DNA of 43,633 bases from contig LBVN01000003.1 of assembly GCA_000993115.1 (NCBI GenBank), forward strand, positions 1-43,633. The letters are read 5' to 3'. This DNA comes from Candidatus Woesebacteria bacterium GW2011_GWB1_38_8b (lineage in GTDB: Bacteria; Patescibacteriota; Microgenomatia; UBA8517). The notes under the pieces were generated by a model. It was not told the origin of the DNA and did no database searches. It saw nothing but the letters and a program-made list of their open reading frames with translations. Both the position numbers and the translations under genes were made by a program. This document shows, piece by piece, positions 1-42,920 of this stretch (positions are counted from its first letter, which is position 1; each line of letters opens with the position of its first letter).

Positions 1-777
1 CCTTAGCCAAGCGATTATTTCTTTTTTGCCACCCGCAAATCCACCGACTACACCGAAGGCTTTACTTAAAGTTCCGACTTCGATATCGACTTTTCCATGT
101 AAACCAAAATGATCAACCACGCCTCTTCCGTTTTTTCCCAAAACCCCTTCACCGTGTGCGTCATCAACTATTAGCAGTGCTTCATATTTTTGGGCCAATT
201 TTGCTAATTCCGGAAGAGGGGCAATATCCCCATCCATTGAGAAAACTCCGTCGGTAACAATAATTTTTTTGCCAATATTTTTGGCTTTCTTTAATTTTTC
301 TTCAAGATCAGATGAATTTAAATGCAAATACCGCACCACTTCCGCTTTTGAGAGTCTGCAGGCATCGATAATACTTGCGTGATTTAATTCATCCGAAAAA
401 ATCAGATCACCTTCGACTGCAATAGTCGGGATAACTGCCAGATTTGCCGTAAATCCTGATTGAAAAACTACAACGTCATCGACCTTTTTAAATTCGGCTA
501 GCCTTTTTTCCAACTCCTGATGGAGAGTTGTTGTTCCCGCGATTGTCCGCACTGCGGCTGGCCCGATTCCGTATTTTTCAATTGCAGATTTGGCTGCCCT
601 TATAAGTCTTGGGTCATTTGCAAACCCGAGATAATTATTAGAGGCAAAGTTTAAATATTTTTTACCTCCAATTAAAATTTCCGCTCCGATCGGACTATCG
701 ATAATTCTTGGGGTGTTATAAAAACCTTCGTCTTGTAAGTTTTGGATTGAATCAGTAAACCACGAATACTTGCTCAT
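1..777 (-). CDS. kbl: Glycine C-acetyltransferase / 8-amino-7-oxononanoate synthase family PLP enzyme (3' end runs off window)
   Basis: Not in the ORF track. Hand translation from ATG at 777: MSKYSWF...[10 protein letters not shown]...[17 protein letters not shown]...[11 protein letters not shown]...VDDAHGEG...GTLSKAFG (class II aminotransferase motifs, PLP lysine). kbl vs bioF is not certain. Confidence 0.85.
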
Positions 778-18256: not shown

Positions 18257-19117
18257 ATGAAACGATTGAAGTTTGGTTATACTCTTTCATTTATTGTGTT
18301 TTTGTTTGTCATTTGCACAAAACCAACAGCAGCACAGGTTGTGATTAATGAAATTTCTGTCCAGCCTGCTGATAAATATGATTGGGTAGAGTTATTCTCT
18401 CCTACTCCCGTTGACATATCAGGTTGGAAAGTTGGTGATGAAGCTGGAGTATTTGAGACAATTCCACAAGGGACACAATTGGGGCCTAACATTTATTTCG
18501 TTGTAAGCCAATATCAGCGATTGGATAATGAGAGTGACACAGTTATTCTCTATAACAACAGCGATGTTGAAATTAATAAAATTATTTATGGAAAATCCAA
18601 TAGTGTGTGCGTCTCTTCTGAAACAGGCTCGATAGCTAGAATTCCCGATGGTGGGAATACAATTGACAGATTGGCTTCTAACACAAAAGGATCCAGTAAT
18701 GGGGAGTTGGCTACCGATCCCTGTCCCACTCCAACTCCGGTCCCGACCAACTCACCTACAAATGTTCCAACGAACACACCGACAAACTCCCCAACTCCTA
18801 CCCAGAAACCCTCAAATACGCTTACACCTACGGCAACCAAAAAACCGACCAATACTCCAACAGAACCGGAAGAATCTCCGGCCGAAGGTGACGAGTTGGT
18901 ATTGGGTTCGACGGATCCTCTTTTAAGCTCAACACCAATCCCAACCGAAACTTCGGAAAATGATAACGGTGGCAAAAATTTCCCATTTGTTCCGGTATTG
19001 TTTATAATCTTAGGAATAGGTTTTATTGGTAGCGCGGTTTTTCTTGTACTTAAAGGCCGGAAAGAAAATTTAAAAACTTTGGAAAATGTCGAAAAGTTTA
19101 CAAGACAGGATAATTAA
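18257..19117 (+). CDS. Secreted lamin-tail-domain protein with Pro/Thr linker and C-terminal TM
   Basis: Signal peptide; VVINEI...DWVEL...DISGWKVGD...LDNESD; PTN repeats; TM followed by basic tail. Confidence 0.8.
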   Translation: MKRLKFGYTLSFIVFLFVICTKPTAAQVVINEISVQPADKYDWVELFSPTPVDISGWKVGDEAGVFETIPQGTQLGPNIYFVVSQYQRLDNESDTVILYNNSDVEINKIIYGKSNSVCVSSETGSIARIPDGGNTIDRLASNTKGSSNGELATDPCPTPTPVPTNSPTNVPTNTPTNSPTPTQKPSNTLTPTATKKPTNTPTEPEESPAEGDELVLGSTDPLLSSTPIPTETSENDNGGKNFPFVPVLFIILGIGFIGSAVFLVLKGRKENLKTLENVEKFTRQDN

Positions 19118-21832: not shown

Positions 21833-22051
21833 ATGAAACAAACATATTCTACAAAAAATATATCACAGGTTCTCTTAAACGAAATAAAAGATGCATTGAA
21901 AAATGTTACTGAATACGGAAGTATTGAAATCTATATCCAGGGTGGGTGTGTTACCCAAATTACTACCAGAAAAATTAAGAAGACCAATGGCTACGGCTTA
22001 AAAAATCACGAAAATATGACCAATAACGGACACAAAAAGGATTTGTCATAA
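21833..22051 (+). CDS. YezD/DUF2292-like small basic protein
   Basis: IKDALKNVTEYGSIEIYIQGGCVTQITTRKIKK matches the YezD pattern (I..i..GSv.i.i.dG.V.Qi); start could be 21821 or 21833. Confidence 0.7.
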   Translation: MKQTYSTKNISQVLLNEIKDALKNVTEYGSIEIYIQGGCVTQITTRKIKKTNGYGLKNHENMTNNGHKKDLS

Positions 22052-22109
22052 TCTTCTGATGCATGTTATATTGCTTATACTATATAGATATCCAACTAAA
22101 TTAATGTGC

Positions 22110-22138
22110 TTGACAAAGTCAAAATATATCGTTATAAA
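22110..22138 (+). promoter_or_regulatory. Sigma70-type promoter (second candidate at 22152-22179)
   Basis: TTGACA-17 nt-TATAAA; also TTGACC-16 nt-TATAAA. Confidence 0.7.
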
Positions 22139-22188
22139 TTACTTTATATAGTTGACCTATATTTAAGTAGTTATATAAACATATAAAA

Positions 22189-22325
22189 AATGATCTTCTG
22201 CCCCTTTGAAAGATTATTGAGAGTTCACCGCAAACGGAGACTCTCCGATTTAACAAATTAGTTTGAATCGGGGCGTCTCCGTTTATTTTTTCTCAATGTT
22301 ATGTTGGGAAGTAAAGATAAACGGA
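22189..22325 (+). promoter_or_regulatory. Attenuator-like 5' leader with mutually exclusive terminator/antiterminator folds
   Basis: Terminator aaacggagac...gtctccgttt+attttttc (22232-22291); competing stems gagagt/actctc (22219-22245) and tccgtttat/ataaacgga (22278-22325). Confidence 0.7.
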
Positions 22326-22385
22326 AGGAGTAAAATTACAAATAATTTGTAATTCTAAATACGTAGAAAGGAGGTGAAAATAAAA

Positions 22386-23648
22386 ATGACTTTAAAAAAG
22401 AAATTAACAACAGCAGTTGCCACAGCAGCATTATTTATGAACTTCGCTCTTCCGGTCGCAGCACAAACTATTTCCGGTAATAATAGTGATTCTGAGAATT
22501 ATATTAATACCGACGTAGATTATGACTTTGACTTGGATCAGAATAACGATGCGGACGTTGAAAACAGCGTCAATATAAGTCTTGATAGCGGTGGTAACAA
22601 GGTAAAGGATGTTGTTGGAGGTGAAGTTGAAATAGAAACTGGTGATCTAGAAGCTGGAGTTCAAGTAATGAACCAACTTAACATGAACGTAGCATCTTTT
22701 GATGTTTGCGGATCATGCGGAATGACCGGTGATTTCAAAATTGCCGACAATAATAGCGGTTCAGACAACGACATTGATTACGACTATGAATCAGATTTTG
22801 ATCTTGATCAAGATAATGATGCAGACGTCGAAAATGATGTCGATGTAACAGGCAAAACTGGCGATAACGAGGTTGATGACACGATGAACGGTGACGTATC
22901 TGTTAAAACAGGTGACGTTACAGTTAATCCAATCATCATTAAAAACGCTCTTAACGCCAACTGGGCAGTAGTTTCTTCTTCAGATGAAGAAGAGGACGGT
23001 GTCTCAGCCTGGATTCTTGGCAACAACTCAGATAGTGACAATTTCATTAATTTGGATTTTGATCACGATACTGATGTTGATCAAGATAATGATGCCGATG
23101 TTGAGAATGATGTAGCAGTTTCTGCAAAAACTGGTTATAACGACGTTGATGACGTCGCTGGAGCCGGTGTTTCTATCGACACAGGTGATGTTGAAGTAGG
23201 GGTCATGATTGATACTATGGCTAACTTTAACATGGCTGCAGTCGAAGACTGTTGCTTCTTGGGTGATCAGGAAACAAAGATCGCCGACAACAATGTCGAC
23301 TCAGATAACGATATCGAAGTCGATTTAGACTTAGATTTCGAGTTGGACCAAGATAATGACTTTGACTGCGGAACCAGCAAAGGTTGGTTTGACAATTTCC
23401 TTAGAGGTTACGAAGGCGGAAGTGATTGTAACGAAGTTGACGTAACTGGAGGAACCGGAGACAACGAAGTTGAAGATGCTGCTGCCGGCGGGCATGATCC
23501 TGAAATAACAACAGGTGATGCTGCAGCTGCAGTTCAATTAAGCACTTCGGCTAATGTAAACGTCGAAGGTGGAGCTGGTGTAGATTTTGATGTAGATTTC
23601 GGAGAAGTCGCAGACATGCTCGGAGATCTTTTCGATCTACTCGACTAA
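22386..23648 (+). CDS. Secreted, very Asp-rich protein with four ~80-aa NNSxSxN / QxNxAxVxN / TGD repeats
   Basis: SD aaaggaggtg (the ORF-track GTG at 22374 is part of it); signal peptide ending VAA|Q; repeats visible in the translation. Confidence 0.85.
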   Translation: MTLKKKLTTAVATAALFMNFALPVAAQTISGNNSDSENYINTDVDYDFDLDQNNDADVENSVNISLDSGGNKVKDVVGGEVEIETGDLEAGVQVMNQLNMNVASFDVCGSCGMTGDFKIADNNSGSDNDIDYDYESDFDLDQDNDADVENDVDVTGKTGDNEVDDTMNGDVSVKTGDVTVNPIIIKNALNANWAVVSSSDEEEDGVSAWILGNNSDSDNFINLDFDHDTDVDQDNDADVENDVAVSAKTGYNDVDDVAGAGVSIDTGDVEVGVMIDTMANFNMAAVEDCCFLGDQETKIADNNVDSDNDIEVDLDLDFELDQDNDFDCGTSKGWFDNFLRGYEGGSDCNEVDVTGGTGDNEVEDAAAGGHDPEITTGDAAAAVQLSTSANVNVEGGAGVDFDVDFGEVADMLGDLFDLLD

Positions 23649-23696
23649 GATTTGGTAGGTTTGAGTGGGGGGTTTCCCTCACTCAAACTCCAAGTC
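23649..23696 (+). other. Strong intergenic hairpin without a T tract (mRNA stabiliser or partial terminator)
   Basis: gtttgagtgggg-gttt-ccctcactcaaac with outer gatttgg/ccaagtc. Confidence 0.65.
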
Positions 23697-23733
23697 CGAA
23701 TTAGAAAAATAAATAAATTTAAATATTAATAAA

Positions 23734-25908
23734 ATGAAAATAAAGAAAATAATTACAGTAATTACAATAGTATCGCTGCTTTTGGGGTATTCGGTACCTT
23801 TTAGTGCGGGAGGATTTGTAATTGCACAGACCTCTCCTTCAGAGCCGAGTTCGCCGGAGCAACCTGCAGCCCCCGACCAACCGGATAGTCCGGATCAACC
23901 AAGTGGTCCTGACGAACCTGAAAGCCCGGATTTGCCCGAAGACACCAGTACAGGTAGTAGTGAACAAAATGTCGAAACACCTGATACGACAACTACGGAT
24001 CAAACCGAAGGCACTAATAATACAGGCTCCCAGGATGTGAATGGAAATGTTGGTGATACAAACGTAACAACAGGAGACGCGACAGCAACAGGAGCGCTTC
24101 TTACCGATACAAACTTAAATACTTCAACCAATCCGACAGCGGGAACTGCCGGAACGTCTATTGTAAATGAGGGAAATAACTCAGGATCAGTCAATGTCTC
24201 CGATGTTACGCAGAACTCGACCTCTACAATTAATCAAGACAATAATGCCGTTATAACAAATAGCGCAGATCTTTCAGCAGTCACAGGCGGAAATACAGTT
24301 GCCAATAATATGAACGGTAACGTGACTATTGAATCGGGGGATGCTAATACTGCACTTACGGTAATCAATCAGGCAAATACAAATATTGCCGGAGTTGATG
24401 TTGTTGAATTTAATGTTTTTGACGATCAGGTAGGTGACGTAATTTTGGATTTTAGTAATCCTTGCGCCGCAGGTAGCGGGTGCACAGCCGGAACCCCGGT
24501 TTACGTCGGAAATACGAACAATAATTCAGATTCAACTAATACCGCCCAATACACATCCGATGTAAACAATTCAACTTTCCAAAATAACGATGCAGTAATT
24601 GAGAACAATATTATCCTAAACTCCGATTCGGGAGGCAATTTGGCAACAGACAATATGAACGGGGATACAAATATTAAAACCGGTGATGCAAATGTTTCTG
24701 CAAACGTAGCCAATCTGGTAAACAACAATTTCCAGGGTGAGGTTTATTACGGAGTTGTGAACGTCTTTGGAGATTTAATCGGAGATATAATTCTTGCTAC
24801 AACCCCGACAACCTCTACCCCGGGTACAGTTATTGATAATTCCGGGAACGGATCAGGGTCAACAAACTTTGCAAATGTTGATACAAGCGTGTCAAATGAC
24901 TATACACAGAATAACAATCTGAATTTGGATACAAATATTAACGCTACGGGGACTACCGGTGACAATACTGCATCAGCAAACATGCAGGGAGGGCAATCAA
25001 TTGAGTCAGGCGACGCGAGTTTTACAGGTCAGATATTTAATGTAGCCAATAATAATGTTACAGGCGGCGATTGGTGGATAGTATTGGTAAACGATGCAGG
25101 CAATTGGATCGGAAAAATCGTGGGTGGCCAGGAAGGCATGAATTATGCCGGATCAGCCGGAACGGAATTTATAGTTAATCCTGACGGATCAATAACCGCT
25201 GTCAACAGCGGAAACAATAGCGGTTCAACTAATACTGCAAACGTTACACAAAACACTCAAAATACTGTAACTCAAAATAACAATGCATCAATAACAAATA
25301 ACTTGAACTTAAGTGGAAACACCGGTGGAAACACAATCCAAAACTCCATGAATGGCGGAGCTTCGGTTGAAACAGGGGATGTAAACATAGTTGCATCCGT
25401 TGTTAACTTTGTAAACAATAATTTTTCCGGAGGACGGGTTTACATGACAGTTGTCAACGTACTGGGAGGAAAATGGCTAGGAAACTTTATTGCCCCCGGT
25501 CATACAAAAGAGGAAGCCTTGGCACAAAACCCGGAACCGACTCCGGAGCCAGCACTGGGAGGATTAGATAATGATCCTGATGAGGATTCAATTGCGCTAA
25601 TTAATCCAACAACTACTAAAAAGACGAAGAAAACAATCCAGTCTTCCACACCGACAACAACTCCGGTGCAATCAGTCTTGGCTGCAATCACAGGACGATC
25701 AACCAGCGCTTCTGGAGGAAGTCTTGTAAACCCTGTAATCGATGGTGAGGAATATGATGAGGCAGCAGCATTGGCAGGTGATATTGCAGTTGCAAAAAGT
25801 AAAATACGAATCAATTTAGCCTGGGCGATTATAATTGCTCCCCTTCTTTTTGCGATACCGCTGGCAAAAAGAAAATTATTCGCAAAACTGCCTTCCAAAA
25901 AGAACTAA
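23734..25908 (+). CDS. Secreted Asn/Thr-rich repeat protein (same repeat, ~4.5 copies) with C-terminal TM anchor
   Basis: Signal peptide, (PxxP)n acidic linker, GNNSGSxN...QxNNA...TGGN...I.TGDA repeats, TM followed by KRK. Confidence 0.85.
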   Translation: MKIKKIITVITIVSLLLGYSVPFSAGGFVIAQTSPSEPSSPEQPAAPDQPDSPDQPSGPDEPESPDLPEDTSTGSSEQNVETPDTTTTDQTEGTNNTGSQDVNGNVGDTNVTTGDATATGALLTDTNLNTSTNPTAGTAGTSIVNEGNNSGSVNVSDVTQNSTSTINQDNNAVITNSADLSAVTGGNTVANNMNGNVTIESGDANTALTVINQANTNIAGVDVVEFNVFDDQVGDVILDFSNPCAAGSGCTAGTPVYVGNTNNNSDSTNTAQYTSDVNNSTFQNNDAVIENNIILNSDSGGNLATDNMNGDTNIKTGDANVSANVANLVNNNFQGEVYYGVVNVFGDLIGDIILATTPTTSTPGTVIDNSGNGSGSTNFANVDTSVSNDYTQNNNLNLDTNINATGTTGDNTASANMQGGQSIESGDASFTGQIFNVANNNVTGGDWWIVLVNDAGNWIGKIVGGQEGMNYAGSAGTEFIVNPDGSITAVNSGNNSGSTNTANVTQNTQNTVTQNNNASITNNLNLSGNTGGNTIQNSMNGGASVETGDVNIVASVVNFVNNNFSGGRVYMTVVNVLGGKWLGNFIAPGHTKEEALAQNPEPTPEPALGGLDNDPDEDSIALINPTTTKKTKKTIQSSTPTTTPVQSVLAAITGRSTSASGGSLVNPVIDGEEYDEAAALAGDIAVAKSKIRINLAWAIIIAPLLFAIPLAKRKLFAKLPSKKN

Positions 25909-27141
25909 ATGGAAGTAAAAATAAGAAAGACACTTCAGACAATACTTGCCTTGGTTGTGGCCGTAAGGCTTGTTTTTCCATTGGTTATTATCGCTCAAAC
26001 CGTTGAAGAAAATAATTCCGGATCAACAAACACAGTTACGGAAAATGTATCTTCGACTCAAACCACCAACCAGACAAACCAGGCAGATATAGGAAAAAGC
26101 GTAAATGTTTCACTTAATACCGGCGGAAATACTGTTTCCTCGTCGACGGGAAATTCTACAATTAATACCGGAGATACCAGTTTCTCGACATCAGTTGAAA
26201 CGGCTGCTAACACCTCTGTCGTTGACAGCGGTTGTTGTGCCGAAGCAACACCAGATCCAACAAAAATTTCCGACAATAACTCCGACTCGACAAATACAAT
26301 AAATACTACTTCTGAAACAACAACTGTGGTTGATATCGATCAGAACGCGACAATTACCAATAAAATAAACGCGACTCTTTCTACCGGAGGAAATTCAATT
26401 TCCGATTCAACCGGAAATTCAACAATTACGACCGGTGATGTAAAAGTAAAAGGCGAGATAAATAACGGTCCTATTAATTATGCGGACGTTACTTTAGGTG
26501 GTTCAGGCACCAACGTCTCAACTGTAATCACAAGTAATAATTCAGGCTCCACTAATATCATTTATAACAGCTTCAAAAACTACAGCGACATTAATGTAAA
26601 TAATTCTGCGAAAGTTAAAAACTTACTGTCATTTCTTTTGGACAGCGGAAATAACAGCATTGAAAATAATATAGGAAGTGCAAAAATTTCTACGGGAGAT
26701 ATATTCTTTGTTTTCAAAATTAATAATGCCATAAATGTTTCAAAAATTACTTATGCATGCTGCGGAGACAGTTGTCCTGACCCCGTGGCACCGACGCCAA
26801 CGGCCACTACGACCGCTACACCCACTCCGACACCAACCGGTGCAATTGGTGGCCCACCGACAACGACCTCAACAAATAATAATGACGACGACGATGACAA
26901 TGGTGGAAGCGGAGGATCTGTTGAAAAAAGAGTTGCGTCAATGGTGTTGGGTGCAACCGGAAGTTTTATGGAAAATTTGTTTTATGTATTTTTTGCATTG
27001 GGAAGTATTTTGATCGGATTTGGAATTAGGAAAAACGGGATATCATATATTTATAATTTTGGCTTGGGAACTGCAAGAAGGATAAGATTATATTCCAAAA
27101 TATTTACTTCCAGCCAATTTGAATTGACCCTTTATATTTGA
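25909..27141 (+). CDS. Secreted repeat protein (3 copies) with Pro/Thr linker, VLGATG and TM (possible sortase substrate)
   Basis: ATG abuts the previous stop; same repeats; LGATG-hydrophobic helix-RK. Confidence 0.8.
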   Translation: MEVKIRKTLQTILALVVAVRLVFPLVIIAQTVEENNSGSTNTVTENVSSTQTTNQTNQADIGKSVNVSLNTGGNTVSSSTGNSTINTGDTSFSTSVETAANTSVVDSGCCAEATPDPTKISDNNSDSTNTINTTSETTTVVDIDQNATITNKINATLSTGGNSISDSTGNSTITTGDVKVKGEINNGPINYADVTLGGSGTNVSTVITSNNSGSTNIIYNSFKNYSDINVNNSAKVKNLLSFLLDSGNNSIENNIGSAKISTGDIFFVFKINNAINVSKITYACCGDSCPDPVAPTPTATTTATPTPTPTGAIGGPPTTTSTNNNDDDDDNGGSGGSVEKRVASMVLGATGSFMENLFYVFFALGSILIGFGIRKNGISYIYNFGLGTARRIRLYSKIFTSSQFELTLYI

Positions 27142-27281: not shown

Positions 27282-27776
27282 TTAGAGATTAAACAATTTG
27301 AGAAAAAGTAACCTAATAAACTTTGTGTTTTGTTTTAACTCGTCAATATCGGGTGTTGTTTTATCGTACAAATGCTTCTTGATGATGTCCTTGTAACTCG
27401 AGAGATATAATTTAACATTTGAGGTCAACCTTTTATTAAGTGCATCCTCGACAGTCATAAACTTTATTTCTTGCCCTTCAAGCGGACCTAACTTAAATCT
27501 TTCTATTTCATTTTTATCAACATAAGACCAAAAGATACTAACTTCTCGAACCTTGTTCTTAAGACTGCCTATATAATGTATCTTTTTAGGGGAATAACTT
27601 ACTTCTTCAACAAGTTCTCTTTTGAGCGCCTTAATCGGGGTTTCACCTTCTTCTAGGTGCCCTCCTGGTAGTTGCCACTTATCAGGCTCAGCTATCGTGG
27701 GAATGTTATCTCTCTTAATAAAGAGTATCTTATTGTCGTTTACAATTATTGCTATGGCGGTTTTTCTAAATCTCAT
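27282..27776 (-). CDS. NUDIX hydrolase
   Basis: Nudix box GGHLEEGETPIKALKRELVEEV. Confidence 0.9.
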   Translation of the reverse strand: MRFRKTAIAIIVNDNKILFIKRDNIPTIAEPDKWQLPGGHLEEGETPIKALKRELVEEVSYSPKKIHYIGSLKNKVREVSIFWSYVDKNEIERFKLGPLEGQEIKFMTVEDALNKRLTSNVKLYLSSYKDIIKKHLYDKTTPDIDELKQNTKFIRLLFLKLFNL

Positions 27777-29244
27777 AATCTTGCTATTATTTTATATCTT
27801 TCTTCAACTTTCCTATATGATTGAGCGACGAATGATGCAACTGCATCTTTGGACTCATTCAAATCTAGTATACCTCCATTTTCAGGCTCTCCAAAATGGG
27901 TATCGACTACAGACTTTATCGTACCAGCGAGTAATGTCATTTCATCTTCTAACCTTCTACCTGATTGTCTGAGCAATGTCTTATCAACTTCCTCTTTAAT
28001 CTCTGGTGTCATCTTTCCCATCTTCTCTCTGAAACAAGTTGATATGTATTGCGAGCTTGATTTATGTAATAGAAAGCATTTCCAAAAACTCGCAATTCTT
28101 CATCACTTAACTTATCTCTTAAATTATCCAATAAATCTTCGTAATTCAAAGTAAAGGGCACATCATACCTTGTCGATAATCCCATTAAAGTTACCGACAA
28201 CAAACGAAACGGATAGTCTTTTAACCCGGGGTATTCAGGCATATTCTGTCCATAGACACGGCTAACCAATCCTGATGCTCTAGCTATACTCTGGTGTGAT
28301 GTATTCCAAGCCGATTTAGGATTTGCAACTGGTAAAACATCTCTTTCGTAGTGTTCTTGAAAATTATCTCCATTTATTTCAATCGCTTTTCCCATATAGA
28401 AATACATCTGTAGGTAAGCAGAGAGATATCCGTTGTCAACTTGCTTTCCACTTTTAATTAAATCTTCCACAAGAATATTTGACCTATGGTCAACTTTATA
28501 TCCCAGCGACATTAAATATCGAGATAACTCAAGAACATATCTTTCTGATTCAGGTCCCCAATAGTAAAAATCCACATCTCCTGCATATGTTTTGTGGTCA
28601 CGGAGATAAACGGTCGCTCTACTGTCACCTGCTATTCCATTAGCTGTCCAAAATTGTTGGAGATGGCCCCTTGTAACTGCTTCTAAGGCTTGATTATTTT
28701 GTTCAAGTAAACGTCTTGAAATTTCTTGATGATTTCCACTTGATAGTATTAGTGCTCTTTGCCATTCTTTAATTCTATTCAACTCCTGAAACAAAACTCT
28801 TTCGTCACCTGTATAAACTAAATCAGGAGGCGAGGATAGGAGCGGTTCTCCCGAGACTTCTATAGGTTGTAATCTAACAGCATCCATTTTTCTTCTTAGT
28901 TTTCTGGCATCAAAGCCTAGCAAACCTTTTGATAGAAGACCAACAATTACTGACAATTCGGAACTGGAAGTGTGAGGGTCACTCACATCAATCTCTAGAT
29001 CTGCTACTAAATCTAGTATAGATTTTATATGTTCCTCGCCAAAACCCGCTTCGAGAAGAGTTTGGGAGTATGTATAAATTGGCAGGCTTGTATTCCCTTT
29101 TGCGGAACTCCATTTGTCACTAAGTAAGCTTGAAGCCTAACCAAATTGTGATGTGGTTTCTATTTCAGCAACTTTTGTGACAATTATCTGCCTTGCTCGC
29201 TCTAAGTTTAAATCAAATTTAGGGTTTTCTATATTTACGCCCAT
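27773..29244 (-). pseudogene. Probable disrupted Pol-beta-superfamily nucleotidyltransferase (in-frame TAG, likely frameshift); covers ORFs 28009-28986 and 27773-28021
   Basis: ATG 29244 is in frame with ORF 28986, with a single TAG at 29137-29139; AGDVDF DxD motif; AFYYINQARNTYQL helix like GlnD/GlnE/HEPN-type; GA-repeat at the junction with the 82-aa ORF. Confidence 0.55.
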
Positions 29245-29534: not shown

Positions 29535-30086
29535 ATGTTAGCTAAATTTTTTGGGAAAATAAGACGATTGAGTGGTGTGTTTTTGATCTTGGCGGGTGTA
29601 TTTTTTCTGCTAGTTGCTGCCTTTGTAAAAAATTACTCGGAGAAAGTATTGTCTTTTTCAACTCCCGATGGCGGGGAGGAAGCCGTTTCTAAAGCTGCAA
29701 AGGTAAAAGAAATTTATATTGAAAGTTTAAACATCAAGTTGCCGATTACTGAGTCCAAAATCGAAAACGGTATATGGCAAGTATCGCAGGACGGCGCAAG
29801 CCATCTGGATATTTCGGCAAATCCGGGTGAGGGTGGAAATATTGTTTTATATGGCCACAACAAAGCAAATCTTTTTGGAAGACTTACAAGAATAAAAATC
29901 GGGCAGGTGGTTGAACTAAAAGACGAGTTTGGAATTACCCATAAGTATTCGGTTGAAAGTACGACAACCGTAACGCCCGATCAAATTGACTATGTTCTGC
30001 CTAAGAATACCGAAACACTGACGTTTTATACATGTGTTGGATTTATGGATTCAAAAAGGTTTATTGTAACCGCTAAACCAATATAA
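29535..30086 (+). CDS. Sortase (class D/E-like), catalytic triad intact
   Basis: TM; NIVLYGHN (His), TLTFYTC (Cys), KRFIV (Arg); TGa-TATAAT leaderless promoter. Confidence 0.9.
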   Translation: MLAKFFGKIRRLSGVFLILAGVFFLLVAAFVKNYSEKVLSFSTPDGGEEAVSKAAKVKEIYIESLNIKLPITESKIENGIWQVSQDGASHLDISANPGEGGNIVLYGHNKANLFGRLTRIKIGQVVELKDEFGITHKYSVESTTTVTPDQIDYVLPKNTETLTFYTCVGFMDSKRFIVTAKPI

Positions 30087-30167: not shown

Positions 30168-30836
30168 ATGAATTTCAGAAACCTTGCCAATTTTAGTACA
30201 ATTGTAGCGCTTTCTTTTATGTTACTTGCGCATACGGCTTTTGCGGCTGAATCAGAGTTTTCAGCGAGTGGTTTTGCCCAGTTTTGTGCAAAAAATCCAA
30301 GCATATGTAAAAAGGTAGATGTAAGCGGTAGGAAAGCCGGATTGAAATGTCCCGATTTTAACAATCAAATTGCAACAAAAGTTTATGTCCATGCAGGTGA
30401 CGGTCAGGTAATTTATGAAATGCCACACGTTGGGTTCAATTACGCAATCAACCTATACGGAGTTGGGGGAGCAGAAGTTGAAGTAACGACTCACAAACAC
30501 GATTTAAGCTGGGTTGCGGTTGAGTGTTCTTCTAAAAGCACTCCTAGCCAATCGCCTACGGTTACACCTGCGAATACATTAACACCCACTCAAACACCAA
30601 CTAGTACAGATACACCTGGTGTTACTGAAACACCAACACCAACCCCTACTAACGGAGAAAACAACAACAGTAATTCAAGTTCCGGCTCAAATGATTCCGG
30701 ACGTGGAGGCGCAGAAATCTTAGGTGCCACAACTCTTGCGTTTACAGGAGCTCCATTAACCGGAATTCCAACAATGATACTTTTGGGTGGACTTTCCATT
30801 CTTCTTCAGGGGTTTAAACTCATCATAAAAAAGTAA
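30168..30836 (+). CDS. Secreted Cys/His-containing protein with LAFTG sortase sorting signal
   Basis: Signal peptide AFA|A; Pro/Thr linker; EILGATT-LAFTG-hydrophobic-KK; adjacent to the sortase. Confidence 0.8.
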   Translation: MNFRNLANFSTIVALSFMLLAHTAFAAESEFSASGFAQFCAKNPSICKKVDVSGRKAGLKCPDFNNQIATKVYVHAGDGQVIYEMPHVGFNYAINLYGVGGAEVEVTTHKHDLSWVAVECSSKSTPSQSPTVTPANTLTPTQTPTSTDTPGVTETPTPTPTNGENNNSNSSSGSNDSGRGGAEILGATTLAFTGAPLTGIPTMILLGGLSILLQGFKLIIKK

Positions 30837-33427: not shown

Positions 33428-33624
33428 GTTAATCTTCCAATGTAAACCTTCCTAACAACTCCCTTTCGTTTTCCTTATAATTTTCAACAAATGATTGATA
33501 TGTCAAGATTTTAGATGGAAATTGTGATTTGTCGTTTTGAAACATTTGCAAAATTGGTTTTGGATTTAACCAATCGGGACAATTTATACCAATATAATAC
33601 TTATAGCTTGAATATTTGTATTTA

Positions 33625-33645
33625 TGCAAGGGATTATCCCTTGCA
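33625..33645. repeat. RAYT-associated palindrome inside the transposase CDS
   Basis: tgcaagggat-t-atcccttgca, perfect; reads ARDNPLH. Confidence 0.9.
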
Positions 33646-33913
33646 AGCAGCTCACTTGGATTAAGATGAATGTATCTTGATAAGTGAAGGAAATAGGATT
33701 CATCCAAGATAAGGACCGCTTTATACACACCCTGAAACAGCCTGCCGGTTCTTTCATAAGTTTTATTAAAATACATAGAATAGTTTGTTAAGAGAGCTTT
33801 AGAGAACCTTTTTAAACCATATTTTGATTTCTGACGAATAAGTAAATGGAAATGGTTGGGCATAAGGCAGTATGATATGAGTTCAATATCGTCATAACAA
33901 TTTAACGGTTTTC

Positions 33914-33934
33914 TACGAGGGATAATCCCTTGTA
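33914..33934. repeat. RAYT-associated palindrome inside the transposase CDS
   Basis: tacgagggat-a-atcccttgta, one G-T; reads IQGIIPR. Confidence 0.88.
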
Positions 33935-34122
33935 TTTTCAACAAATCTGGATGGTCGATTGGCAGTAAATATTCTTTGAGAAGCCTGAGAAAAACTGAAT
34001 AGTCCAAATCTCTTTGGAAAATCTTTCGTTTATCAACTCCTCGATTATATATGTGGTAGTATCCGCCTTCTATGTAAGTTTTAACTGAGTTTAATGGAGG
34101 CATATTTAATTTTATCATGCGC

Positions 34123-34292: not shown

Positions 34293-35705
34293 ATGAAGAA
34301 AATATTATCAAGCCTTACCATCCTCAGCCTGACACTTGCGCTAGCAATCGGATTTTCTCGGGCATTTTTCTCCGATACAGAAACTTCAAAAGATAACAAA
34401 CTCACAGCAGGAAAAATTGATTTACTTGTTGATAACACTTCTTATTACAACGGAGTAAAAAATGAAGGAACAACCTTTACTCCAAGCGATTTACCGGAAA
34501 AATATTTTTTCAATTTTACAGATTTAAAGCCAGATGATTACGGTGAAGATACGATAAGCTTGCACGTTGATGATAACGATGCTTGGGCTTGTATGAAAAT
34601 TACAAAGACTGCCGATGATGATAATACCTGCACTGAGCCTGAAAAAATTGACGATCCGTCGTGTTTGGAACCCGATAACGATACTGATGACGGTGAGCTT
34701 GGAGACAATCTACTCTTTGTTTTCTGGGCAGATGATGGTGATAATGTTTTGGAAGTTGGCGAAGATCCAACTTGGAGGAAAGGAAGCGCTTCAAGTCTTT
34801 TTGACGGAACCGTTTGGCCACTCGCTGATTCATCCTTCAATGTTTGGGGTGAAGCTTCTGGAACACGGTTGGCTCCAAATCCGCGACCAGTCGCCGAGTA
34901 TCCACTTGGTCCCGCTGGGGATAATAATGGAAACAATATAGCTGGTGAACCTGAAGACGGAGGATTTTTCTGTGACGGCGAGACTCTTAATAATGTAACC
35001 CAAACCGATATTTTCCTTGCAGATGTTGAATTTTGGGCAGAGCAGCGCCGACATAACGACAATTTCCGTTGCGACGGAACGACCCCATCAGGAACACCGA
35101 CAAATACTCCGACTCCAACTCCATCACTTGTTGCTTGCCAACAGGCTGATGTGATACTTGTGCTTGATAGGTCGGGAAGTATTGACGGCACAGAACTTGC
35201 TACTCTAAAAACCGCCGCAAAAACTTTCATTGACGATCTTGGTCTTTCAGCCTCAGGAATTCACGCAGGTTTCTCAAGTTTCGCAACTACTGCATCACTT
35301 AATCAGCACTTAACGGACAATGGCACAACAGTTAAAAACGCAATCGACCTACTTCCTTCAAGCGGATTTACAAACCTGAAAGAGGGAATTGATCTTGCAA
35401 TCGGTGAACATGCAAACCCCGGCGATAATCACGATAGAGAAGATGTTGGCTCTCCCGACAAAATGATAATTATTACGGACGGTCATCCGAACCGTCCACT
35501 TCCCGAATCAACTGCCGATGATGTTGCAAAAGCTTCGGCCGATGCAGCGAGGTCTGCTGGTGCTGAAGTCTATGTTGTCGGAATCGGAAGCGATGTAAAT
35601 GCAAGTTATCTGCAGACAGTAGCAAATGATGCAGGCCACTATTACCCGGTTTCGGGTTATGGCGGTCTTCAGACTGTGTTACAGAATTTGGACCTCTGCG
35701 ATTAG
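34293..35705 (+). CDS. TasA/CalY-like protein with SipW-type signal and C-terminal VWA domain
   Basis: SRA|FFSDTETSKDNKLTAGKIDL; DLKPDD.GE; VWA MIDAS DRSGS...TN...ITDG. Confidence 0.85.
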   Translation: MKKILSSLTILSLTLALAIGFSRAFFSDTETSKDNKLTAGKIDLLVDNTSYYNGVKNEGTTFTPSDLPEKYFFNFTDLKPDDYGEDTISLHVDDNDAWACMKITKTADDDNTCTEPEKIDDPSCLEPDNDTDDGELGDNLLFVFWADDGDNVLEVGEDPTWRKGSASSLFDGTVWPLADSSFNVWGEASGTRLAPNPRPVAEYPLGPAGDNNGNNIAGEPEDGGFFCDGETLNNVTQTDIFLADVEFWAEQRRHNDNFRCDGTTPSGTPTNTPTPTPSLVACQQADVILVLDRSGSIDGTELATLKTAAKTFIDDLGLSASGIHAGFSSFATTASLNQHLTDNGTTVKNAIDLLPSSGFTNLKEGIDLAIGEHANPGDNHDREDVGSPDKMIIITDGHPNRPLPESTADDVAKASADAARSAGAEVYVVGIGSDVNASYLQTVANDAGHYYPVSGYGGLQTVLQNLDLCD

Positions 35706-37924: not shown

Positions 37925-38013
37925 GGCTCAAATATCTGATCCAAAAATTTTGAATCGGAGAGAGAGCCTCCAGCCCGGAGGGCTTCCGGCCCGGAGGGGA
38001 GGTGAATAAAAAT

Positions 38014-38856
38014 ATGAAAAGAATTTTATTAAGCATTTCAACAATCGCATTAGTTGCAGCTTTTGTAGCTCTCGGCACAAATGCATTTTTCAATGACACT
38101 GAGACTTCAACTGGAAATAAGTTGGAAGCAGGTTCAATTGATCTTAAAGTAGATAATCATAGTTATATTGATCAAGGACACGGACTCGTAGAAAATGCTG
38201 ACACAACTTGGAGAGCAAGCGACCTGAATAACGAGACTCTTTTCTTTAATTTTACGGATTTAAAACCCGGAGATCTTGGAGAAGATACAATCAGCTTACA
38301 TGTTGATAGTAATCCATCATGGTTGTGTGCCGATATATCTTTGACTGCTGATGACGATGTTTCTTGTACTGAACCTGAAAAAGCTGACGATCCTACTTGT
38401 ACGGATCCGGGAGCACCTGGAAATACGACTCTTTTTGATGGGGAATTAGCTCATGCATTAAACTTTATTTTCTGGAAAGATGATGGAGATAATGTACTGG
38501 AAGATAATGAAGTTAATGGGATTCTGACACAAGGTCCGGCAAGTGGAGTATTAAATGGCGCCCATTGGGCACTTTTTGATTCATCAACAGGTGGACCGAC
38601 AGATCCTACACAAGTTTACTTTATAGGCAAAGCTTGGTGTTTTGGAGCATTAACACTTAATGCCGTAACTCAAGACAATTTACCGGGTCAGCCTACAAAT
38701 GGCCCCGATGTTAGAGGAGCAGGTGTAAAGTGCGACGGAACTTTAGTAAATAACGCAGCCCAAACCGATTTGGTTACGGGTGATGTTATATTCCGAGCAG
38801 TGCAGGCAAGGCATAATGATCCTTTCTATTGTGATGGAAGGCAATTGCCTGTGTAA
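38014..38856 (+). CDS. TasA/CalY-like protein with SipW-type signal (candidate major fibre subunit)
   Basis: SD ggaggtg; GTNA|FFNDTETSTGNKLEAGSIDLKV; DLKPGD.GEDTISLHV; paralog of 34293. Confidence 0.88.
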   Translation: MKRILLSISTIALVAAFVALGTNAFFNDTETSTGNKLEAGSIDLKVDNHSYIDQGHGLVENADTTWRASDLNNETLFFNFTDLKPGDLGEDTISLHVDSNPSWLCADISLTADDDVSCTEPEKADDPTCTDPGAPGNTTLFDGELAHALNFIFWKDDGDNVLEDNEVNGILTQGPASGVLNGAHWALFDSSTGGPTDPTQVYFIGKAWCFGALTLNAVTQDNLPGQPTNGPDVRGAGVKCDGTLVNNAAQTDLVTGDVIFRAVQARHNDPFYCDGRQLPV

Positions 38857-39737: not shown

Positions 39738-41096
39738 ATGAATAAGATAATTCGGAATTACAAGTGGGTAGTTTTCTTTTTAATTTCTTTTATTGCTTTT
39801 GAAGCCGGATTCGTTGCAACCTTAATTATTACGCCCCAAAAATTAACCGATACTTTTCAAAATCTGAAAATAGGGAAGGGGAGTCTGCCAAGAGTTTACA
39901 TCGTCCAATCGGGATCAATGGAACCGGCAATAAAAACCGGAAGTTTGGTATTTTCTATCCCGCAGAATAATTATAGGGTTGGGGAAGTGGTAACGTTTTC
40001 CCTCTCCCCTACCGGCAAAAATTTAGTAACCCACAGAATTAAAAGCATAAGCGGGGAAGAGGAGATAACAACAAAAGGAGATGCAAATGAGGATGCCGAC
40101 TCGCAGACTGTAAAATCGGGATCCATTGTCGGAAAAACAGCATTTACAGTTCCCTACCTCGGATATATCGCGAACTTCGCAAAAAATCCGAAAGGATTTA
40201 TCCTTTTAGTAATTGTTCCTGCAACAATAGTTATTTATGAGGAGATGAAGAATTTACGGAAAGAAATTGCAAAGTTCTTAGGAAAAGCGGGAAGTAAATT
40301 GTTTAAAAAGAAAAAGGGGAATATCCCTTCGACTTCGCTCAGGGTGGCCTACGGCCTAGATTATGCGTTCCCCTCTCCCCTGCCAAAAACGAAAAACGTT
40401 CCTGCTTACGCTATTGCAATCCCGGTTTTCGGAGTGCTTCTGGTTTTAATTGCTTTTTCGGCGAGTTATTTTTCCGACCGCGAAAAAAGCGAAAGTAATA
40501 TTCTCGGCGCGGCAGAGAGTTTTGGAACTCCTACCCCGACCTCAGCGACAAATGGAACCCCAACCCCGACACCGATTCCGACGGGTGGCGTAGTAGTTAA
40601 TGAAGTTTATTATCGAATAGCGAATGAGCATAAAATCGATAACAGTGAGGCAGGTTCTGAGTGGATTGAACTCTATAATTCTTCCGCTGTCCCAGTTGAT
40701 ATGACAGGTTGGTCTGTTACCGATAACACAAGCTGCGATGCTTTTCCCGCAACACCCTCTATAGCTCCTGGGGGGTTTGCGATTTTAACGACCCATACAG
40801 AAGCCGATTTTAGGGCTGTGTGGGGAAGTGTTCCGACAGGTGTAGTCTTTATTCAGAGTCCCACGGCGATTGGTAACGGATTGGCAAATAATGACGAGAT
40901 CATGTTAAAAAACGGCAGCTGTGCGGCAGGTACAATAATTGATCATATAAGCTGGGGCTCAAATGTCGTAGCGTTTAATCCATCAATACCACTGATTCCT
41001 ACAAGCGGTTCGTCGTCCGAACGAAATCCTGACGGGGTTGATACAAATACAAACGCAGATTTTACGACAAGCACTCCCCCAACACCGGGAATTTAA
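39738..41096 (+). CDS. sipW: SipW-type signal peptidase I fused to an internal SipW-type signal and a lamin-tail domain
   Basis: VQSGSMEPAI..G (Ser), VTHRI (His), TKGDANED.D, PYLGY; then TM-SAS|YFSDREKSESNILGA; VVVNEVY...EWIELYN...DMTGWSVTD. Confidence 0.85.
   Translation: MNKIIRNYKWVVFFLISFIAFEAGFVATLIITPQKLTDTFQNLKIGKGSLPRVYIVQSGSMEPAIKTGSLVFSIPQNNYRVGEVVTFSLSPTGKNLVTHRIKSISGEEEITTKGDANEDADSQTVKSGSIVGKTAFTVPYLGYIANFAKNPKGFILLVIVPATIVIYEEMKNLRKEIAKFLGKAGSKLFKKKKGNIPSTSLRVAYGLDYAFPSPLPKTKNVPAYAIAIPVFGVLLVLIAFSASYFSDREKSESNILGAAESFGTPTPTSATNGTPTPTPIPTGGVVVNEVYYRIANEHKIDNSEAGSEWIELYNSSAVPVDMTGWSVTDNTSCDAFPATPSIAPGGFAILTTHTEADFRAVWGSVPTGVVFIQSPTAIGNGLANNDEIMLKNGSCAAGTIIDHISWGSNVVAFNPSIPLIPTSGSSSERNPDGVDTNTNADFTTSTPPTPGI
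40323..40345. repeat. CTTCGACTTCGCTCAG-type palindromic element, in frame within the sipW CDS
   Basis: atcccttcgacttcgctcagggt, reads IPSTSLRV in the cytoplasmic linker. Confidence 0.6.
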
Positions 41097-41111
41097 AAAG
41101 GGGAGACTATT

Positions 41112-42248
41112 ATGATAAAAAACAAAAATAGAAAAATAGTTGCACTTTTTCTTTTGCCCTTTGTTTTGGTAGGGCTACTTTATGTAATCAACAAAAAGCG
41201 TGTTAATGAAATTTATGCAGTTGATCCGATTGTTGTAACTTACGACGGAAATACTACTCCCGATGCAATTTTTGAAGTTTATAACATGCTGCCGGGGGAC
41301 GAGGTTGAAAAAATATTTAACGTCAAAAATAGTTCGACAAGCTCACTATCTGTTGTTTTGGACGGTATAAAAACCAGTGAGCTGAAGAATTTCTCGGAAA
41401 TCCTGGACGTGCTAATTTCGGACGACTCCGCCACCACTTATTTTTCGGGAAAACTGAAAGACTTTTTCTCAAGCCCCCCAATAAATCTTGGAACCTTCTC
41501 CCCCGGTCAGGATAAAAATTTCCATGTAAAAGTTAAATTTCCAACTTCTGCCGGAAATGAGTATCAGGAAGGCGCAGTTGTGTTTGATTTAATATTCAAA
41601 ACAGAAGGACCACCGATTGAACTCCCAGAGGAATGTAAGCATTTGTCGGGGAAAATTGTAAATGTAATTGAGGGGACTGATAATTATGATAACATCCGTG
41701 GAACATCTAGAGGGGACTTGATTTTGGCTAAGGGAGGCAAGGACAAAGTTGACGGGACTTCGGGGGACGACTGCATTATCGGCGGAGAAGGAAACGATAA
41801 AAGACTGGATGGCGGGTCCGGACGCGACACGATAGTAGGAGGCAACGGAGACGACTTTTTGGACGGAGGGGCAGAGGATGATTTAATGTATGGTGGTGAG
41901 GGAAATGACAAAATGGAAGGCGGATCGGGAAACGATAAAATTTATGGTGGAAATGGAAACGATAAAATAAACGGATCTTCACAGGAAGATCTTATTTACG
42001 GCGAAGCCGGGAACGATTATCTTTACGGCGGAAGCGGGGATGATGAGGTATACGGCGGTATTGGCGAAGATACAATTGTAGGAGATTCCGGTGATGATAA
42101 GTTGTACGGTGAAGAAAATAATGACAAATTGTACGGAGATTCAGGAGATGATTATTTAGACGGTGGACCGGACTTCGATTATCTTCGCGGAAATACGGGT
42201 ACAGATACTTGTGTGTTAGGTGAGACACTAGTTTCCTGTGAGCTTTAA
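41112..42248 (+). CDS. TasA-like domain plus RTX-type Ca-binding repeats
   Basis: N-terminal TM; NMLPGD...FNVKN...FPTSAGNEYQ; many GGxGxDxUx nonapeptides. Confidence 0.85.
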   Translation: MIKNKNRKIVALFLLPFVLVGLLYVINKKRVNEIYAVDPIVVTYDGNTTPDAIFEVYNMLPGDEVEKIFNVKNSSTSSLSVVLDGIKTSELKNFSEILDVLISDDSATTYFSGKLKDFFSSPPINLGTFSPGQDKNFHVKVKFPTSAGNEYQEGAVVFDLIFKTEGPPIELPEECKHLSGKIVNVIEGTDNYDNIRGTSRGDLILAKGGKDKVDGTSGDDCIIGGEGNDKRLDGGSGRDTIVGGNGDDFLDGGAEDDLMYGGEGNDKMEGGSGNDKIYGGNGNDKINGSSQEDLIYGEAGNDYLYGGSGDDEVYGGIGEDTIVGDSGDDKLYGEENNDKLYGDSGDDYLDGGPDFDYLRGNTGTDTCVLGETLVSCEL

Positions 42249-42296: not shown

Positions 42297-42920
42297 ATGG
42301 CTACTGCCAATAGACTTTTTCAATTTGTTTTTGTGCTTTTTTTTGGGACAATCGTGCTTTTTATAATTTTGTATTTTCCGATAATAGGAGCCGAAATAAA
42401 ATATACTTTAGCCAGAAAAGATGATGTTACAGTTATCATGCGTGGAAATCCAATTGAAGGCTTGAGGCGCACAATTGTTGCAAACGATACCGATTTTGGG
42501 ATTATTATTCCAAAAATTGGGATAAACATGAGCGTTGTGGCTAATGTTAACCCATACGAATCGTACTATTACAAACCGGCGCTTAAAAAAGGAGTTGCAC
42601 ACTCGAAAGGGTCAGCGTTTCCGGGAAAGGGTGGTAATATAATTATTTTTTCACACGTACCGGGAGGACTTTTTGAAGTTCAGAAATATAATTTGGCATT
42701 TTATTTAATCAACCGTCTTGAAATAGGAGACCCGATTTTTATATATTTTGACGGCTTAAAATATCAATATAATGTTACGGGAAAAAATGTTGTGAGTGAT
42801 TTGGATGTAAAGTTTGAGGACTTAAGCGTCAGTCCGAAAACCGAGTTGTTAACGATAATGACACTTTGGCCTCCGGGAACATCACTTCGCCGTTATGTTA
42901 TCGACGCGAAAAAGGTCTGA
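42297..42920 (+). CDS. Sortase-family protein lacking the catalytic Cys
   Basis: IIIPKIG, GVAH..GS..PG..GN..IFSH, LTIMT-L-WPPGT..RR; Leu codon CTT at the Cys position. Confidence 0.85.
   Translation: MATANRLFQFVFVLFFGTIVLFIILYFPIIGAEIKYTLARKDDVTVIMRGNPIEGLRRTIVANDTDFGIIIPKIGINMSVVANVNPYESYYYKPALKKGVAHSKGSAFPGKGGNIIIFSHVPGGLFEVQKYNLAFYLINRLEIGDPIFIYFDGLKYQYNVTGKNVVSDLDVKFEDLSVSPKTELLTIMTLWPPGTSLRRYVIDAKKV

Follow-up and report, generated by a model that had tools for sequence, protein, structure and literature searches.

What kind of structure could be built by three adjacent genes whose secreted products share a repeat that no family database names? The question is raised by a locus of Candidatus Woesebacteria bacterium GW2011_GWB1_38_8b, an ultra-small, monoderm groundwater bacterium of the Microgenomates-type Patescibacteria. 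The locus lies in a 43,633-nt stretch of contig LBVN01000003.1, which we call the window; all coordinates are positions in it on the forward strand. Little is established about the surface make-up of the Candidate Phyla Radiation (CPR)/Patescibacteria and the way in which these cells grip partners or particles, and here the locus brings into view a protein family that is large and unnamed, a fixed cassette of four genes and a testable assembly model. An earlier note on this DNA had proposed that the three genes, here g1, g2 and g3, specify a polymer of a major subunit and anchored nucleators. The explanation that we favour, and to which we give about an even chance, is an anchored surface fibre in which the acidic major subunit g1 polymerises head-to-tail on its anchored paralogues g2 and g3. 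The main features of the locus are the following.

22386 to 23648, plus strand: g1 (open reading frame, ORF, 22374/22386-23648), 420 aa, secreted, four repeats
23649 to 23696, plus strand: RNA hairpin directly 3' of the g1 stop codon, without a U-tract
23734 to 25908, plus strand: g2, 724 aa, four full repeats and an N-terminal half copy
25909 to 27141, plus strand: g3, 410 aa, three repeats, predicted sortase substrate
29535 to 30086, plus strand: sortase of the cassette type (PF04203, 4.5e-23)

One repeat in three secreted proteins

The three genes run in the same direction, the ATG of g3 following the g2 stop codon without a gap, and the ORF list and an alignment of 11 copies bear out the claim that they share one repeat. 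The copy numbers given earlier (4, about 4.5 and 3) were likewise recovered with a repeat profile, which places four copies in g1, four full copies plus the N-terminal half in g2, and three in g3. The repeat length of 75-80 aa, on the other hand, has to be corrected: the conserved core comprises 84 profile positions, about 85 residues, and the motifs recur every 88-90 residues or so in g1 and g3 and every 110-120 or so in g2. Positions N5, S9, N11, G42, N44, G59 and D60 are invariant across the 11 aligned copies. The Cys motifs are also present as described, with CGSC at residues 108-111 and DCC at 289-290 of g1, and GCC at 109-110 and ACC at 284-285 of g3. A profile search of the whole genome returned exactly the 11 copies (E 1.1e-22 to 1.6e-32 each, values that chance could not produce), and no repeat outside g1-g3 was found in the 0.90-Mb assembly (33 contigs, 85.6% complete). 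The repeats are located as follows.

22467-22721, 22737-23000, 23010-23264 and 23277-23585, plus strand: repeats of g1, from the repeat profile
24163-24453, 24508-24789, 24835-25119 and 25201-25488, plus strand: full repeats of g2, each followed by an aromatic-rich extra segment
25999-26244, 26263-26508 and 26524-26772, plus strand: repeats of g3, followed by a Pro/Thr linker

Scans of g1-g3 against Pfam, NCBIfam and PHROGs gave sub-threshold noise only; at E<=1, Pfam returned MspA for g1 (E 0.4) and nothing for g2 or g3. ClfB, IgA-binding BAC, SpoVAEA, WGxxGxxG and a tail protein, which appeared in the family scans, were dismissed with scores far under the curated cut-offs. A sequence search of the Protein Data Bank (PDB) with g2 gave 0 matches. 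The repeat profile retrieved from the PDB the designed helical repeat protein 8erw (E 9.9e-6), which we rejected as a compositional match because the target is helical and no single stretch passed. Thus, a confident match to a known globular or enzymatic family, the outcome that the earlier note had named as fatal to its proposal, was absent from Pfam, NCBIfam, PHROGs and the PDB sequences. We also considered an enzymatic beta-helix of the lyase type, but dropped it for want of a family match and because the proteins are limited to 3 to 5 layers. The ESM Atlas, searched by features, gave nothing but unnamed CPR clusters, which come from Woesebacteria and Gottesmanbacteria, and, searched by structure, template-modelling scores of at most 0.22 by query (0.29 by matched row). 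No description of the family was found in word searches of open-access text.

The family itself is large. Among 1.84 billion cluster representatives, the repeat profile matched 3083 at E<=1e-3 and 1949 at E<=1e-10, and two architectures dominate among these representatives, one with 4 repeats in about 400-440 aa and one with 5 in about 720-800 aa. The named homologues, 105 matches for g1 and 24 for g3, belong to Woese-, Chisholm-, Gottesman- and Levybacteria and to Parcubacteria; every one is "hypothetical" but for a single automatic label, "filamentous hemagglutinin". Identity is 42-61% between orthologous repeats and 29-41% between repeats of different genes, from which we conclude that the architecture is old and fixed.

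Predicted fold of the repeat

Column statistics over 677 repeats show a strict alternation of hydrophobic and polar positions, and certain sites are invariably Asn, Gln, Gly, Thr or Ser. The AlphaFold model of g1, built on a 91-sequence alignment, is all-beta (predicted local distance difference test, pLDDT, 81.6; predicted template-modelling score, pTM, 0.68); its strand pattern recurs in every repeat and includes an unbroken ladder run of about 33 residues. An exhaustive structural search with this model gave weak matches only; beta-helices or solenoids account for all of those with Z>=4 and for the majority below that value. The highest are beta-helices of the SufD/SufB type (Z 6.3-5.9, root-mean-square deviation (rmsd) 2.4-2.6, 118-119 residues over 55..391). 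CsgA follows at Z 5.0 and 4.6, the first of these being a weak match with rmsd 8.3 over 87 residues, and FapC is also weak at Z 4.1. RTX rolls match at Z 3.2-3.5, with 72 residues forming four coils that range over 71..380 and hence over all four repeats; four coils over four repeats point to one layer per repeat. RsaA (Z 3.1 and 3.0), Tapirin, SRRP, TibA, UpaB and PfbA are also among the weak matches. The g3 model matches the CsgA fibril best (Z 4.0, rmsd 2.3, 67 residues), again weakly. Taken together with the two-copy model described below, these computations support the earlier suggestion of a beta-solenoid-type stack with Asn/Gln ladders.

The acidic protein g1 and its predicted interface

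As proposed, g1 is unanchored and extremely acidic. It has a signal peptide (residues 1-26, cleavage VAA/Q), which is its only hydrophobic segment, and of its 420 residues, 102 are acidic and 13 basic. The acidity holds among orthologues, with a median net charge per 100 aa of -12.8 for g1 (n=77), -5.6 for g2 (n=64) and -4.2 for g3 (n=54). Outward positions of the repeat are Asp or Glu in 30-77% of cases in g1 and mostly in <30% in g2 and g3. The C-terminal tail of g1, which is acidic and hydrophobic, is conserved among orthologues.

Mature g1 (residues 27-420) was modelled as a pair of identical chains in three runs, together with controls. The scores were 0.70, 0.66 and 0.68, and the best control reached 0.00; the runs agreed in at least 87% of contacts, with a partner pLDDT of at least 73. 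In the models, residues 295-328 and 346-396 (repeat 4) of one g1 lie on residues 27-105 (repeat 1) of the other, the pairs of lowest error being 322:52, 324:54, 320:50, 314:44 and 353:64. Most of these pairs are offset by 270 residues, that is, three repeat periods, and a few deviate by up to 20 (353:64). Because the offset equals three periods, the invariant Gln/Asn columns would run on from one g1 subunit to the next. The multimer model (score 0.68 versus 0.00 for the best control) thereby supports a homotypic head-to-tail interface of g1, and with it the predicted in-register geometry and head-to-tail growth.

Anchors of g2 and g3 and the cassette sortase

The N-terminus of g2 consists of a signal peptide, a Pro-rich acidic stretch and the half repeat (about 24016-24138). 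At its C-terminus, a low-complexity linker leads to an INLAW motif (25810-25824), a transmembrane segment (25801-25884) and a basic tail; the segment, at residues 690-717, bears out the C-terminal membrane anchor attributed to g2. The motif [ILV]N[LF]AW at the start of the transmembrane helix, with a basic tail, is present in 53 of 64 g2 orthologues, and among the 1002 ORFs of at least 100 aa in this genome it occurs only in g2. We also observed that the end of g2, made of a K-rich stretch, [ILV]N[LF]AW with the transmembrane helix, and the basic tail, has a three-part layout like that of a sorting signal, but is not LPxTG. An LPxTG-like signal is absent from g1 and g2 of the window, a genome scan having flagged only g3 and the ORF at 30168-30836.

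The C-terminus of g3 carries two elements.

26947 to 26961, plus strand: LGATG (residues 347-351), a sorting-type pentapeptide
26965 to 27030, plus strand: hydrophobic segment (residues 353-374), followed by a basic tail, RK...RRIR

Among 54 g3 orthologues, 40 have an LPxTG-like motif, 11 a GLSxTS-like motif and 3 another, each preceding a hydrophobic stretch and basic residues. Since g3 orthologues end in LPxTG, LGATG is, as judged from sequence, a variant LPxTG-type sorting signal; curated LPxTG anchor profiles of Pfam and NCBIfam gave no match to g3 at E<=1. The hydrophobic C-terminus with LGATG that the earlier note had seen in g3 is therefore read as a sortase signal, by way of the LPxTG of its orthologues and the sortase adjacent to them.

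A sortase gene (PF04203, E 1e-20 to 1e-24) stands directly 3' of g3, on the same strand, in seven relatives in which the order g1-g2-g3 is kept. The window's sortase, at 29535-30086, retains the catalytic His (LYGHN), Cys (TFYTC) and Arg (KRF) residues; it is 29-34% identical to the sortases of six of these relatives, with a common indel pattern, and 21% identical to that of the seventh (L024), which is of a different type. We take it for the dedicated sortase of the cassette, with a predicted action on the LGATG of g3. The cassette is larger than the three genes of the earlier note, comprising g1, g2, g3 and the sortase, the last of which is displaced here. In the relatives g3 and the sortase adjoin; in the window, three minus-strand genes lie between them (27282-28986), and because of the adjacency in the relatives this segment looks like an insertion into the cassette.

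27282 to 28986, minus strand: three genes between g3 and the sortase, namely
27282-27776, minus strand: NUDIX gene
27773-28021, minus strand: 82-aa ORF
28009-28986, minus strand: 325-aa ORF with no family assigned

Directly 3' of the sortase, a 222-aa ORF (30168-30836) without a Pfam match ends in LAFTG, a hydrophobic stretch and KLIIKK, and is likely to be a second sortase substrate. A second sortase-domain ORF, at 42297-42920 (PF04203, E 1e-15), has TIMTLWPP in place of the sortase TLxTC and seems to lack the catalytic Cys.

The hairpin after g1 and expression signals

The hairpin following g1, which had been noted earlier, is stable in the window (-31.8 kcal/mol, z -5.2, 0 of 200 shuffles equally stable, no T-run after it) and conserved in relatives. 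It was present directly after g1 in all nine loci first examined. In a larger set, the folding energy was <=-20 kcal/mol for 59 of 60 spacers (median -32), and 54 of 63 loci have a CACUUC loop no more than 110 nt from the g1 stop codon. When strict criteria were applied to 1.05 Mb of loci, 39 such hairpins were found, 28 of them in the g1-g2 spacer. The upper stem shows compensatory changes at all 7 pairs, in 11-21 sequences each; RNAalifold on MAFFT alignments gives this 7-bp upper stem only, and the lower stem comes from single-sequence folds. In most relatives (L028-L106; for example L045:7097-7154) the spacer hairpin has a covarying stem and the loop GCACUUCNG; the window's own hairpin keeps the stem and differs in the loop. 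No Rfam match was found for the hairpin of the window or of 5 relatives. We propose that the hairpin is a 3' stabiliser or a partial terminator that raises g1 over g2 and g3.

Two further elements precede g1.

22269 to 22291, plus strand: terminator-like hairpin with a T-run; stem 22269-22281, then TTTATTTTTT
22369 to 22374, plus strand: Shine-Dalgarno sequence AGGAGG, 11 nt ahead of the g1 ATG at 22386

The Shine-Dalgarno sequence of g1, AGGAGG, is indeed the strongest of the three; the 30 nt that precede g2 and those that precede g3 show no purine-rich stretch to compare with it. The terminator-like hairpin is taken as the 5' boundary of the cassette. A promoter-like site was also seen upstream of g1, within 22043-22291 (TTGTCA, 18 nt, TATATT), with the terminator-like hairpin about 200 nt later; together they may form a leader, or else belong to the end of the DUF2292 gene that lies upstream. 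Contigs from RNA libraries of two studies (X18, X19; 90-99% alike, from a close relative) cover g1 only, from about 22357/22369 to 23419/23460; they fall short of proving transcription of g1 and cannot rank the genes by level, and the bare g2 and g3 are no sign of a lower level, since the data are contigs from runs that had been retrieved with this stretch itself.

Conservation of the cassette

Among eight relatives with whole genomes, the seven mentioned above keep the order g1-g2-g3, and the eighth has g1 and g2 only. A further 79 public loci were found with a 12-row alignment, and adjacency was scored among the loci with room for it. A g1-like gene is present in 77 of them; g2 is adjacent to it in 63 of 67 loci, g3 adjoins g2 in 54 of 62, and the sortase adjoins g3 in 49 of 51. 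The three-gene arrangement, whose conservation the earlier note had left to be checked, is therefore conserved both in the relatives (7 of 8) and in the public loci. In 22 of 39 public loci, a divergent fifth gene follows the sortase (for example L020:8862-9470, L021:8154-8753 and L022:4411-5001), encoding about 200 aa with a signal peptide and two repeats and without an anchor; the window has no such gene. Many cassette-bearing records (L028, L031, L037 and others), which are Third Party Annotation (TPA) assemblies, are titled 'uncultured Gammaproteobacteria'; these titles look like mislabels because the gene content matches that of Microgenomates loci.

Beyond the cassette as such, an even sample across the phylum gave a repeat match (E<=1e-5) in 49 of 400 other genomes. 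Among near relatives, a match occurs in 11 of the 24 genera that belong to its own family and in 0 of 16 genomes of four other families.

Elsewhere in the window, other surface proteins are encoded within 18257-19117, 34293-35705, 38002-38856 and 39738-42248 (two lamin-tail-domain, VWA, camelysin/TasA-like and RTX-repeat proteins), and an IS200-like transposase lies at 33429-34118.

Possible assemblies

How might such a cassette work? In the anchored fibre, the repeats, with hydrophobic residues inside, polar residues outside and turns occupied by invariant Asn, Gln, Gly, Thr and Ser, would be stacked in register into a beta-solenoid of 3-5 layers. The g1 protein would be exported via Sec, acidic on its outward positions and without an anchor; g3 would be fixed to the wall by the cassette's own sortase through its LPxTG-type signal (LGATG), and g2 held by its C-terminal membrane helix. 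Because both anchors are C-terminal, the N-terminal face of repeat 1 would point outward, and the repeat 4 face of g1 could dock on this outward repeat 1 face of g3 or g2. More copies of g1 would then join head-to-tail, the Asn/Gln ladders being extended between subunits in a curli-like polymer. The strong Shine-Dalgarno sequence and the conserved hairpin might give an excess of g1 over g2 and g3, as would suit a major subunit. Calcium binding and host attachment, both suggested in the earlier note, are conceivable; a dependence on cations is plausible, in view of the modelled Asp-clad surface and RTX-like local geometry, and the biological role may be attachment or a coat. A more far-reaching claim, which we put forward tentatively, is that Microgenomates-type Patescibacteria possess a fibre class of their own: functional-amyloid-like, made of short beta-solenoid subunits whose layers are very large (about 85 residues), seeded on a sortase-anchored paralogue, with Asp ladders that need divalent cations to fold, a subunit ratio set by a cassette-specific RNA hairpin, and a place as main surface component and candidate attachment organ.

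Several observations weigh against the anchored fibre. Fold, register and interface rest wholly on predictors, which readily stack repeats. That each repeat is one flat layer of the stack is a prediction drawn from alignment ranges and the contact list; the g3 model is mediocre (pLDDT 67.1, pTM 0.47); Foldseek found 0 matches of the g1 model in the PDB at E<=1e-3; and the structural Z values, all <8, may mean a common arrangement only. The mark used for the g1-g1 score was reached by 20 of 30 solved one-chain pairs and by 1 of 23 single chains, counts that hold only roughly for a score obtained with a custom alignment, and up to 19 in 100 single chains may reach it. Moreover, in-register Asp ladders would repel each other without counter-ions, and the conserved C-terminal tail of g1 is unexplained and could be a cap that blocks growth. 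Finally, the cassette is accessory, not core, because its distribution is patchy, as the counts of genera and genomes given above show.

The same genes could build a finite coat, an assembly resembling a surface layer (S-layer) in which g1 stacks on anchored g2 and g3, and possibly binds laterally to other g1, to form a polyanionic, cation-binding layer. We regard this as unlikely. Extreme acidity and a strong Shine-Dalgarno sequence are typical of S-layer proteins, and g1 combines extreme acidity with the strongest Shine-Dalgarno sequence of the cassette; there are two different anchors, the transmembrane helix of g2 and the sortase signal of g3, and RsaA is found among the weak structural matches. 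S-layers on ultra-small groundwater cells were reportedly seen by Luef in 2015. In PMC5220378 the CPR envelope is described as unresolved. However, the only modelled interface is end-to-end and therefore makes a line, not a lattice, the Pfam and NCBIfam scans gave no match to SLH or any other S-layer anchor family, and the patchy distribution within one family does not favour a coat either. A different arrangement, in which the proteins act singly as non-polymerising beta-solenoid adhesins or binders of cations or minerals, with the repeat as a scaffold, is improbable in our estimation. It would fit the many beta-helix surface proteins that are monomeric adhesins, the weak matches to Tapirin, SRRP, TibA, UpaB and PfbA, and a capping function of the g1 tail, but it leaves stacks of only 3 to 5 layers with both faces open, it gives no place to a predicted g1-g1 interface in exact repeat register, and the strictness with which the three paralogues, the anchorless g1 among them, occur together and in order suggests joint action.

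It could also be argued that the sortase gene of the cassette and the LPxTG motif of g3 betray a sortase-polymerised pilus of the Gram-positive SpaA type. This is very improbable: neither g1 nor g2 has an LPxTG-like signal, g1 lacks a transmembrane segment, no pilin or CnaB family was matched in Pfam, and the predicted fold is a solenoid, not Ig-like.

Comparison with known systems

Of the known systems, the curli of Gram-negative bacteria, with CsgA as major subunit and CsgB as nucleator bound to the surface, resemble the proposed fibre in having major and minor subunits with a common repeat, in having one layer per repeat, Asn/Gln/Ser ladders and few layers, and in growing head-to-tail; CsgA fibrils are among the best, if weak, structural matches of both g1 (Z 5.0) and g3 (Z 4.0). 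There is no sequence relation, however, and the Curlin repeat profile in Pfam is unmatched by g1-g3. Nor were CsgG, CsgE or CsgF found by a Pfam scan of the 24 neighbouring ORFs. A layer of CsgA has about 22 residues, compared with about 85 in the cassette, whose products would be anchored by a sortase and a membrane helix on a monoderm cell. The Fap system of Pseudomonas (FapC/FapB) is similar in that imperfect repeats, three per subunit in Fap, form stacked layers (FapC, Z 4.1). It likewise has no sequence relation to the cassette, and Fap secretion uses an outer-membrane pore, which monoderms lack.

At a smaller scale, about 18-30 residues of each cassette layer (TGxN...GG.V.I.TGD) superpose on one coil of SufD/SufB or RTX proteins with rmsd 2.4-2.6. 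These proteins, however, serve as scaffolds inside the cell or as calcium rolls, each coil having 18-30 residues, and the similarity is local and weak (Z 3.2-6.3). The RTX nonapeptide GGxGxD (PF00353) is absent from g1-g3 and matches a separate ORF, 41112-42248.

In design, though not in descent, the cassette may be compared with the chaplins of Streptomyces, in which long forms are anchored by sortase (LAxTG/LPxTG), short forms are secreted, and both share an amyloid-type domain and contribute to a fibre layer on the surface. Anchored and free paralogues with one common domain are found here as g3 and g1. Chaplins, however, are small and hydrophobic, whereas the cassette proteins are large and polar, g1 being highly acidic; the chaplin domain is unmatched in Pfam, and the sortase gene lies inside the cassette. 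If the anchored-fibre model is true, the cassette would extend the known beta-solenoids by a new geometry, supply a conserved cis-acting RNA element, and represent a monoderm, sortase-anchored counterpart to curli and Fap.

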